DNA of 5,481 nucleotides from a virus (IMGVR_UViG_2728369593_000014:1-5481), one strand, 5' to 3'; counted from the first letter of the stretch, positions 5,045 to 5,481 are shown. A program made the numbers and translations. Notes: generated from the sequence alone by a model not told the origin.

Positions 5045-5228
5045 GGTTCTTTCCACCATCTAAAAAATAATTCTTTAAGATACCTGACATGTAATACACA
5101 AAACCACACCTTAAATAAAAACCTCATCATAAAGCAGATATGCATGGATAAACTACAAGACGAGGTATAAACCACCCTGCATTTAAATAAATAATAAACA
5201 ACATCAGAAAAATAATTCTGCCCTATGG

Positions 5229-5255
5229 TTTACATTCAAAATTATCATTTATACT
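5229..5255 (+). promoter_or_regulatory. Candidate sigma70 promoter for the AT-rich plus-strand ORF (TTTACA-N15-TATACT)
   Basis: TTTACA at 5229-5234 and TATACT at 5250-5255, about 40 nt upstream of the ATG at 5296; the spacer is short (15 nt). Confidence 0.3.
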
Positions 5256-5295
5256 TTTCAGAACAACACCAGCAAGGCATAAACAAGGAAACTAA

Positions 5296-5481
5296 ATGAA
5301 GTGGATTGTGATTGATACAGTTATCCAGCCATCATGCGGAATATCTTTTTCAGTCATATGGAGTAAAATAAAATTAATAATCTGGTATCAATCGGATGCT
5401 TTCTTACCTCCTGAAAGTATATTTACACTGACTCACACAGGTATCATGCTCAATAACAAAGTGCTACCTGTAACCATTTAC
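5296..5481 (+). CDS. AT-rich hypothetical ORF, 5' portion only (continues beyond the window)
   Basis: ATG at 5296 preceded by AAGGAA with 6-nt spacing; open to the window end: [62 protein letters not shown]… Composition is markedly AT-rich, and the gene is oriented opposite to the late operon, which is moron-like. Confidence 0.45.

Follow-up and report, generated by a model that had tools for sequence, protein, structure and literature searches.

The right edge of the window (the whole 5481-nt stretch of viral DNA that was analyzed) is best explained as the left two-thirds, at 5045-5481, of an iraL cassette in a lambdoid prophage. A probability of roughly 0.93 is given to the reading that the cassette carries its own sigma-70-type promoter, encodes an anti-adaptor of the IraM/IraL/RssC family, and is lysogen-expressed cargo lying antisense to the late genes in the slot used by stx. 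The iraL gene, its promoter and its mechanism are already known, having been published in 2014 (PMC4045071).

The first-pass annotation of this DNA had proposed that a sharp drop in composition after 5060 marks an AT-rich gene for a regulator or effector, acquired by horizontal transfer, that has a promoter of its own and opposes the late genes. A scripted re-reading reproduced the drop: the GC content is 0.536 in 4176-5059, 0.297 in 5060-5295 (an AT content well above the genome average) and 0.349 in 5296-5481, that is, 0.30-0.35 at the right edge versus 0.49 in the rest of the window. The AT-rich region is present as described, with its start shifted from 5060 to 5045 when the DUF1737 gene is taken to start at 5044; this corresponds to the start annotated for the 100%-identical locus of strain D1, and is the point at which homology to Stx phages stops. 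The frame that opens with ATG at 5296-5298 on the plus strand contains no stop before 5481 (62 codons), and it is missing from the routine ORF list because it overruns the end of the stretch. The ORF with its Shine-Dalgarno sequence AGGA, the promoter hexamers and an exact 12-bp direct repeat were all found again where the first-pass annotation had placed them. The features are as follows.

4826-5059, minus strand: DUF1737 ORF (Pfam PF08410, E 1e-16), the first late-operon gene after the cassette; left boundary, outside iraL
5045-5295, no strand: AT-rich (~30% GC) left part of the iraL cassette, between the divergent DUF1737 gene and iraL
5063-5074, plus strand: distal copy of the repeat AAAAATAATTCT, -200 to -189 from the transcript start; with respect to the DUF1737 gene on the other strand, 19 nt before its start
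5184-5200, minus strand: PhoP-box-like direct repeat TGTTTA-N5-TATTTA (one mismatch), reversely oriented, from -79 to -63
5208-5219, plus strand: proximal copy of the repeat AAAAATAATTCT, -55 to -44 from the transcript start
5229-5234, plus strand: -35 hexamer TTTACA, followed by a 15-nt spacer
5250-5255, plus strand: -10 hexamer TATACT, invariant in seven alleles, ending 7 nt before the mapped start
5263-5295, plus strand: 5' untranslated region of 33 nt with its start at A5263, assigned by homology
5286-5289, plus strand: Shine-Dalgarno sequence AGGA, 6 nt before the ATG, invariant in seven aligned alleles
5296-5481, plus strand: first 62 of the 111 codons of iraL, interrupted by the end of the stretch

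The 62 visible amino acids, which the first-pass annotation considered not diagnostic, were identified by comparison with CFT073, NCBIfam and PDB. All 62 agree with IraL of the uropathogenic E. coli strain CFT073 (c1429 or C_RS06710, WP_000871291.1; c1429 is also called iraL in a 2025 temperature-shift paper), and the visible coding DNA is identical to CFT073 iraL at 185 of 186 nt (99.5%), the sole difference being synonymous. Hryckowian et al. 2014 recognized iraL by nucleotide identity of at least 95% to the CFT073 coding region without overlap with iraM hits; the 99.5% found here applies to the 186 visible nt, the other 150 nt being beyond the stretch. The upstream 251 nt are 90.8% identical to the region upstream of CFT073 iraL, with one 9-nt indel. 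The 3' part of the gene lies beyond 5481, leaving 62 of 111 codons readable in this genome, and strain D1, with 100% identity over 4900-5481, has a coding sequence of 111 codons whose product is WP_000871291.1. The same protein is also annotated in CFT073 in a prophage next to potC/potD, where iraL has been placed on the 'potB genomic island' (PMC4045071).

NCBIfam model NF007393 (IraM), a subfamily-level model with a curated cut-off of 121 bits, matches the full-length allele from the locus that is 100% identical over 4900-5481 with 162 bits. The 62-aa fragment alone scores 91.9 bits (E 2.7e-26), a shortfall from the cut-off that is due solely to the 49 absent residues. The full-length allele also matches, without gaps, the only solved relative (PDB 8TWD, IraM residues 1-78; E 9e-32) and a PHROG family of unknown function (E 3e-73), and a Pfam search found no family for IraL. 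A short, AT-rich ORF that is cut at 5481 and belongs to no Pfam family might be a chance frame in a noncoding spacer of the late region, but this idea is refuted by the matches to the NCBIfam model, the PHROG family and the solved structure, by conservation of the ORF in 1446 genomes, and by the existence of experiments on the identical CFT073 protein (PMC4045071); its probability is negligible. The first-pass annotation would have counted its proposal as refuted by an ORF that ends shortly beyond the window and lacks conserved homologs. In the 100%-identical loci the ORF does end 49 codons past 5481 (111 aa), but conserved and characterized homologs are abundant.

Every copy of the gene bears the RefSeq product name 'anti-adapter protein IraM', and the NCBIfam model has the same name, as if the gene were the iraM of E. 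coli K-12, which is activated by PhoP/PhoQ and induced by Mg2+ starvation. K-12 IraM, however, is identical to the visible residues 1-62 at only 43 of 62 positions (69%; 61% for full-length IraL versus IraM) and K-12 iraM is 74.7% identical to the visible coding DNA over 166 nt, compared with 100% and 99.5% for CFT073 IraL and iraL. Within the 700 nt upstream of K-12 iraM, no significant similarity to the iraL upstream region was detected (best E 0.07 over 16 nt). The NCBIfam model is of the 'subfamily' type and covers both IraM and IraL, and iraL and iraM hits do not overlap at 95% identity or more (PMC4045071). Given identity to CFT073 IraL, an IraL-type upstream region and the family matches, the gene is iraL, with the RefSeq name serving as a family-level label.

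A search for PhoP control bears on the same question. The full PhoP box (KGTTTA-N5-KGTTTA) is absent at the -35 element of iraL, where a single half-site GGTTTA (5227-5232) overlaps the -35 hexamer. The PhoP-like box at 5184-5200 on the minus strand might be taken to favor an IraM-type gene, but it is in reverse orientation some 70 nt upstream, and a box with at most one mismatch occurs in ~5% of shuffles of the iraL upstream region (P ~0.05), so it may be due to chance and is treated as a lead only. The same scan applied to K-12 iraM as a positive control returned many weak matches and was uninformative. That the gene is a K-12-type iraM induced by Mg2+ starvation is considered very improbable.

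The target of IraL and IraM is RssB, the adaptor by which sigma-S (RpoS) is brought to the ClpXP protease. [quoted passage not shown] K-12 IraM (YcgW or ElbA, b1160), encoded adjacent to the cryptic prophage e14, shares with IraL the family NF007393, the β-barrel and the target RssB, but its upstream region is unrelated, and it is induced via PhoP/PhoQ upon Mg2+ starvation (as reviewed), whereas IraL acts without added stress, in unstressed exponential growth (PMC4045071). RssC of Salmonella is in the same family, with ~49% identity to iraL by ClustalW, and is found in Salmonella only (PMC4045071). The only other protein with the fold of IraM is PmrD (PDB 4HN7), which also binds a receiver domain (PMC10844676); it differs in binding PmrA and protecting PmrA-P from dephosphorylation, and no match at the sequence level was seen.

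In the crystal structure of IraM with RssB, the N-terminal β-barrel of IraM bridges both domains of RssB and covers the α4-β5-α5 face of the RssB receiver domain, which is the sigma-S site (PMC10844676). Codons 1-62 of iraL cover most of the N-terminal β-barrel domain that contacts RssB, and ten of the eleven IraM contact residues located within them are identical in IraL (I4, I6, C14, F18, W22, K26, W30, I42, I61 and Y62), the exception being T13, which is S. Among the contacts past 5481, compared at the sequence level, H63N, I64V and L75I are changed and P66 is kept. Presumably, IraL binds RssB in broadly the same way as IraM. [quoted passage not shown] The 111-aa IraL would thus be predicted to bind RssB with its N-terminal β-barrel docked on the α4-β5-α5 face of the receiver domain, preventing engagement of sigma-S; delivery of sigma-S to ClpXP would be blocked, and levels of sigma-S during exponential growth would be raised.

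The promoter proposed by the first-pass annotation is the only sigma-70-like pair in 5045-5295 on either strand (at least nine of twelve matches, spacer of 15-19 nt). A generic promoter scan missed it because its spacers were limited to 16-18 nt; the same scan reported an intragenic TTTTCA-N16-TAAAAT at 5347-5374, which was disregarded as being at chance level. The 5' end of iraL mRNA was mapped by 5'RACE in CFT073 to ACATCACCAGCAAGGCATAAACAAGGAAACCA, and a sigma-70 promoter was proposed (PMC4045071). In the window, 5263-5294 reads ACAACACCAGCAAGGCATAAACAAGGAAACTA, identical to the CFT073 5'RACE end at 30 of 32 aligned positions, from which we infer a start at A5263 in the source genome. Since the CFT073 start aligns 7 nt after TATACT, TTTACA-N15-TATACT is very probably the published iraL promoter, and we infer that the -35 element of the published paper is TTTACA. 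From this promoter, iraL would be transcribed rightwards starting at ~5263 and translated from AGGA-N6-ATG at 5296.

Both hexamers, the Shine-Dalgarno sequence and the start codon are identical in CFT073, and from -100 to +33 the two sequences agree at 126 of 133 nt (94.7%), with none of the seven differences in either hexamer. This is slightly below the identity of at least 96% reported for the iraL promoter region in the genome set of 2014 (PMC4045071). At 5098/5099, the window lacks 9 nt (ACAGAAAAA) found in CFT073 and in the four other non-identical aligned alleles. The allele is a minority one: of the 1446 genomes with iraL, only 8 match it at 99% identity or more over 5060-5481. The 15-nt spacer is suboptimal, and a promoter strength equal to that of CFT073 is not guaranteed because of the seven differences in 133 nt and the absent 9 nt.

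Variation of the promoter in other strains raises the possibility that iraL in this genome is a dead or silent remnant in a decaying prophage, either truncated past 5481 or fitted with an inactive promoter allele. The -35 hexamer is changed at the equivalent of 5233 to TTTATA in strain Ec-050-T0 and, by a 1-nt deletion, to TTTAAT in strain 97_3250, variants that may alter expression, and a -35 point mutation has been noted in iraL2, the second iraL copy of strain JJ1886 (PMC4045071). Strain Ec-2844 has an IS2 directly before the iraL ATG (locus L008, 1743-3082), an insertion that cuts iraL off from promoter and Shine-Dalgarno leader and would make this strain a natural iraL promoter knockout. 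The window itself contains the end of an IS3-family element as well as split DUF1737 and DUF6645 genes, which in identical loci are pseudogenes according to RefSeq, and it has the seven differences from CFT073 in -100 to +33. The visible iraL sequence, on the other hand, has an intact -35, -10, Shine-Dalgarno sequence and ATG, and 62 codons with no defect and one synonymous difference from CFT073, and an intact 111-aa coding sequence is present in three examined loci that are 100% identical either over 4900-5481 (D1 and MFDS1001074) or over the intergenic region and the visible coding sequence. A defunct gene is therefore regarded as improbable, and iraL is taken to be probably intact.

Several other inputs to the iraL promoter were considered. 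A scan for Fur boxes in the iraL upstream region yielded a best match with 7 mismatches out of 19, typical of shuffled sequences. As there is no Fur box, the modestly higher expression of iraL in a fur mutant of CFT073 is probably an indirect effect. Levels of iraL mRNA in CFT073 are 1.6 log2 units higher at 37°C than at 23°C (2025 temperature-shift paper). The gene is evidently not fully silenced, as IraL is active in unstressed exponential growth. Its increase at warm temperature and the 30% GC content are compatible with partial control by H-NS, a protein that reportedly controls iraM, to judge by the title of work by Battesti et al. in 2012.

The 12-bp repeat AAAAATAATTCT is nominally unusual to a modest degree, though not striking: when the AT-rich stretch is shuffled with its dinucleotides preserved, ~2% of trials contain an exact repeat of at least 12 nt (P ~0.02, uncorrected for the fact that the repeat was picked by eye). 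The proximal copy is present in all seven aligned alleles and the distal copy is intact in six. Four of the five aligned alleles that differ from this one have 13-nt versions of both copies (GAAAAATAATTCT), and in the fifth, Ec-2844, the distal copy carries a substitution. The copies are 145 bp apart here and 154 bp apart in the five alleles with the extra 9 nt. Little weight can be given to this conservation, because the alleles are 91-95% identical overall. A fragment extending from -100 to +33, together with the gene, complements the iraL deletion of CFT073 (PMC4045071); the proximal copy is inside this fragment and the distal copy outside. The proximal copy was also evaluated as an UP element, for it has the position of a distal subsite, but it was rejected as such because by eye the match to the consensus is partial and the proximal subsite is GC-rich. 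The 12/13-bp repeats could be candidate operator sites for some regulator, or they may be without function.

The genes to the left of the cassette belong to a lambdoid late region: on the minus strand, leading leftwards, are holin (2682-2957), lysozyme (1459-1992) and Rz (504-977) genes. In strains D1, MFDS1001074 and CFT073, the order is an antiterminator or DUF1133 gene, then tRNA-Ile/Arg/Arg, iraL in antisense orientation, DUF1737, holin, lysozyme and Rz, with a DNA methyltransferase gene (D1, MFDS1001074) or an IS200 (CFT073) between the antiterminator or DUF1133 gene and the tRNA genes. CFT073 iraL thus resembles the gene in the window in its -35, -10, Shine-Dalgarno sequence, start codon, divergent DUF1737 neighbor and lambdoid prophage setting, and in having tRNA-Arg/Arg/Ile on its other side (a feature seen, for the window, in the loci identical over 4900-5481); it differs in the extra 9 nt at 5098/5099 and in a distal repeat of 13 nt rather than 12 nt.

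Several genes within the late region of the window are fragmented (3334-5059, minus strand). The DUF1737 ORF overlaps a DUF6645 ORF (4176-4829) by 4 nt in a different frame, and a second, C-terminal fragment of DUF6645 (3334-3708) lies beside a DUF826 fragment (3617-3964, named from identical loci) and a DUF1378 gene (3846-4028). In RefSeq, the equivalents of these fragments are designated partial pseudogenes. Other strains encode a fusion of the DUF1737 N-terminus with a SASA/NanS-p esterase. At the other end of the window, 1-330 contains the 3' end of an IS3-family transposase (ORF 79-285) with the end of the element near 320, and the closest genome without the element matches only from 321. 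The ORF at 325-498 encodes 57 aa here versus 74 aa in MFDS1001074, and therefore appears to have been truncated by the IS insertion.

Two further segments of the window run against the late genes on the plus strand. The first, at 3050-3340, comprises two tandem units of ~150 nt, each consisting of AATAT-TTGACA-N13-CTGTCTGT-..-GAAAAT, a GC hairpin (AGCCAGC...GCTGGCT) and a T-run; from these elements, they look like two small, sRNA-like transcription units, for which no Rfam match was found at E up to 1. Stx1 phages, H-19B among them, have this 300-bp segment at 94-97% identity, and there it is unannotated or lies under yjhS or a hypothetical coding sequence. The second, between the holin and lysozyme genes, is another AT-rich ORF (2112-2426, GC ~0.36, 104 aa) with a match to phrog_1853 (unknown function) and none in Pfam; in its position are a 90-aa hypothetical protein in MFDS1001074 and a hypothetical gene of the same orientation in CFT073. 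An Rfam scan of the whole stretch at E up to 1 found nothing in 5045-5481, and gave a sub-threshold match to a rimP leader at 1304-1378.

When 4900-5481 was compared by megablast with complete E. coli genomes, 2274 genomes were matched, and 5060-5481 (the intergenic region and the ORF) is present in 1446 of 5426 at 94-100% identity. Both flanks of the cassette are shared with Stx phages. In the Stx1 phage BP-4795, stxA1B1 is located between Q and yjhS, and the start of yjhS matches the DUF1737 gene; on the other flank, the homology to Stx2 phages takes in the tRNA block and reaches to ~250 bp past the iraL stop codon. The shared flanks indicate that the iraL cassette, of ~840 bp, occupies the stx slot in an antisense orientation and is apparently self-promoted. 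This is the same insertion slot as that of the stxAB moron (Q - [tRNAs] - stx - nanS-p/yjhS - S - R - Rz), but stx is co-oriented with the Q-dependent late transcript and driven by it, whereas iraL runs antisense to that transcript from a promoter of its own. The cassette also has attributes of a moron: its own promoter, a deviant GC content, and a pattern of presence and absence, Stx phages having the same flanks with stx instead. The first-pass suggestion of a horizontally acquired regulator thus corresponds to a prophage-borne iraL, a regulator of RpoS stability.

Outside the window, 35 nt past the iraL stop codon, is a GC hairpin that is kept in D1 and CFT073. Its T-run is on the strand of the late operon, the iraL strand having none, and D1 has a second terminator-like site after the last tRNA gene. 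The terminator-like hairpins (8767-8788, the one nearest iraL, and 8992-9009 in locus L001; 33410-33431 in locus L002) have their T-runs on the late-operon strand and precede the antisense entry into iraL. Their arrangement suggests that they insulate iraL from antisense transcription in lysogens, where the gene would be expressed from its own promoter. Upon induction, Q-modified RNA polymerase would read through the hairpins and either collide with transcription of iraL or make antisense RNA to it; the anti-adaptor would be shut off, and sigma-S would drop as the lysis genes are expressed. That the placement of iraL couples the stability of sigma-S to the state of the prophage in this manner, with the repeats perhaps acting as operators, is a doubtful proposal.

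Because iraL was described in 2014 and is carried by roughly one in four complete E. coli genomes, there is no new biology here. Mildly new, in a descriptive sense, are the antisense location of the cassette in the stx slot, the terminator-like hairpins that precede it in the direction of late transcription, and the conserved 12/13-bp repeat upstream of the gene. The apparently intact promoter and 5' coding region of iraL in this genome are useful for annotation, as the RefSeq name 'IraM' hides a different regulation. IraL alters the level of RpoS in growing cells, and through it stress resistance, biofilm formation and virulence-related expression.
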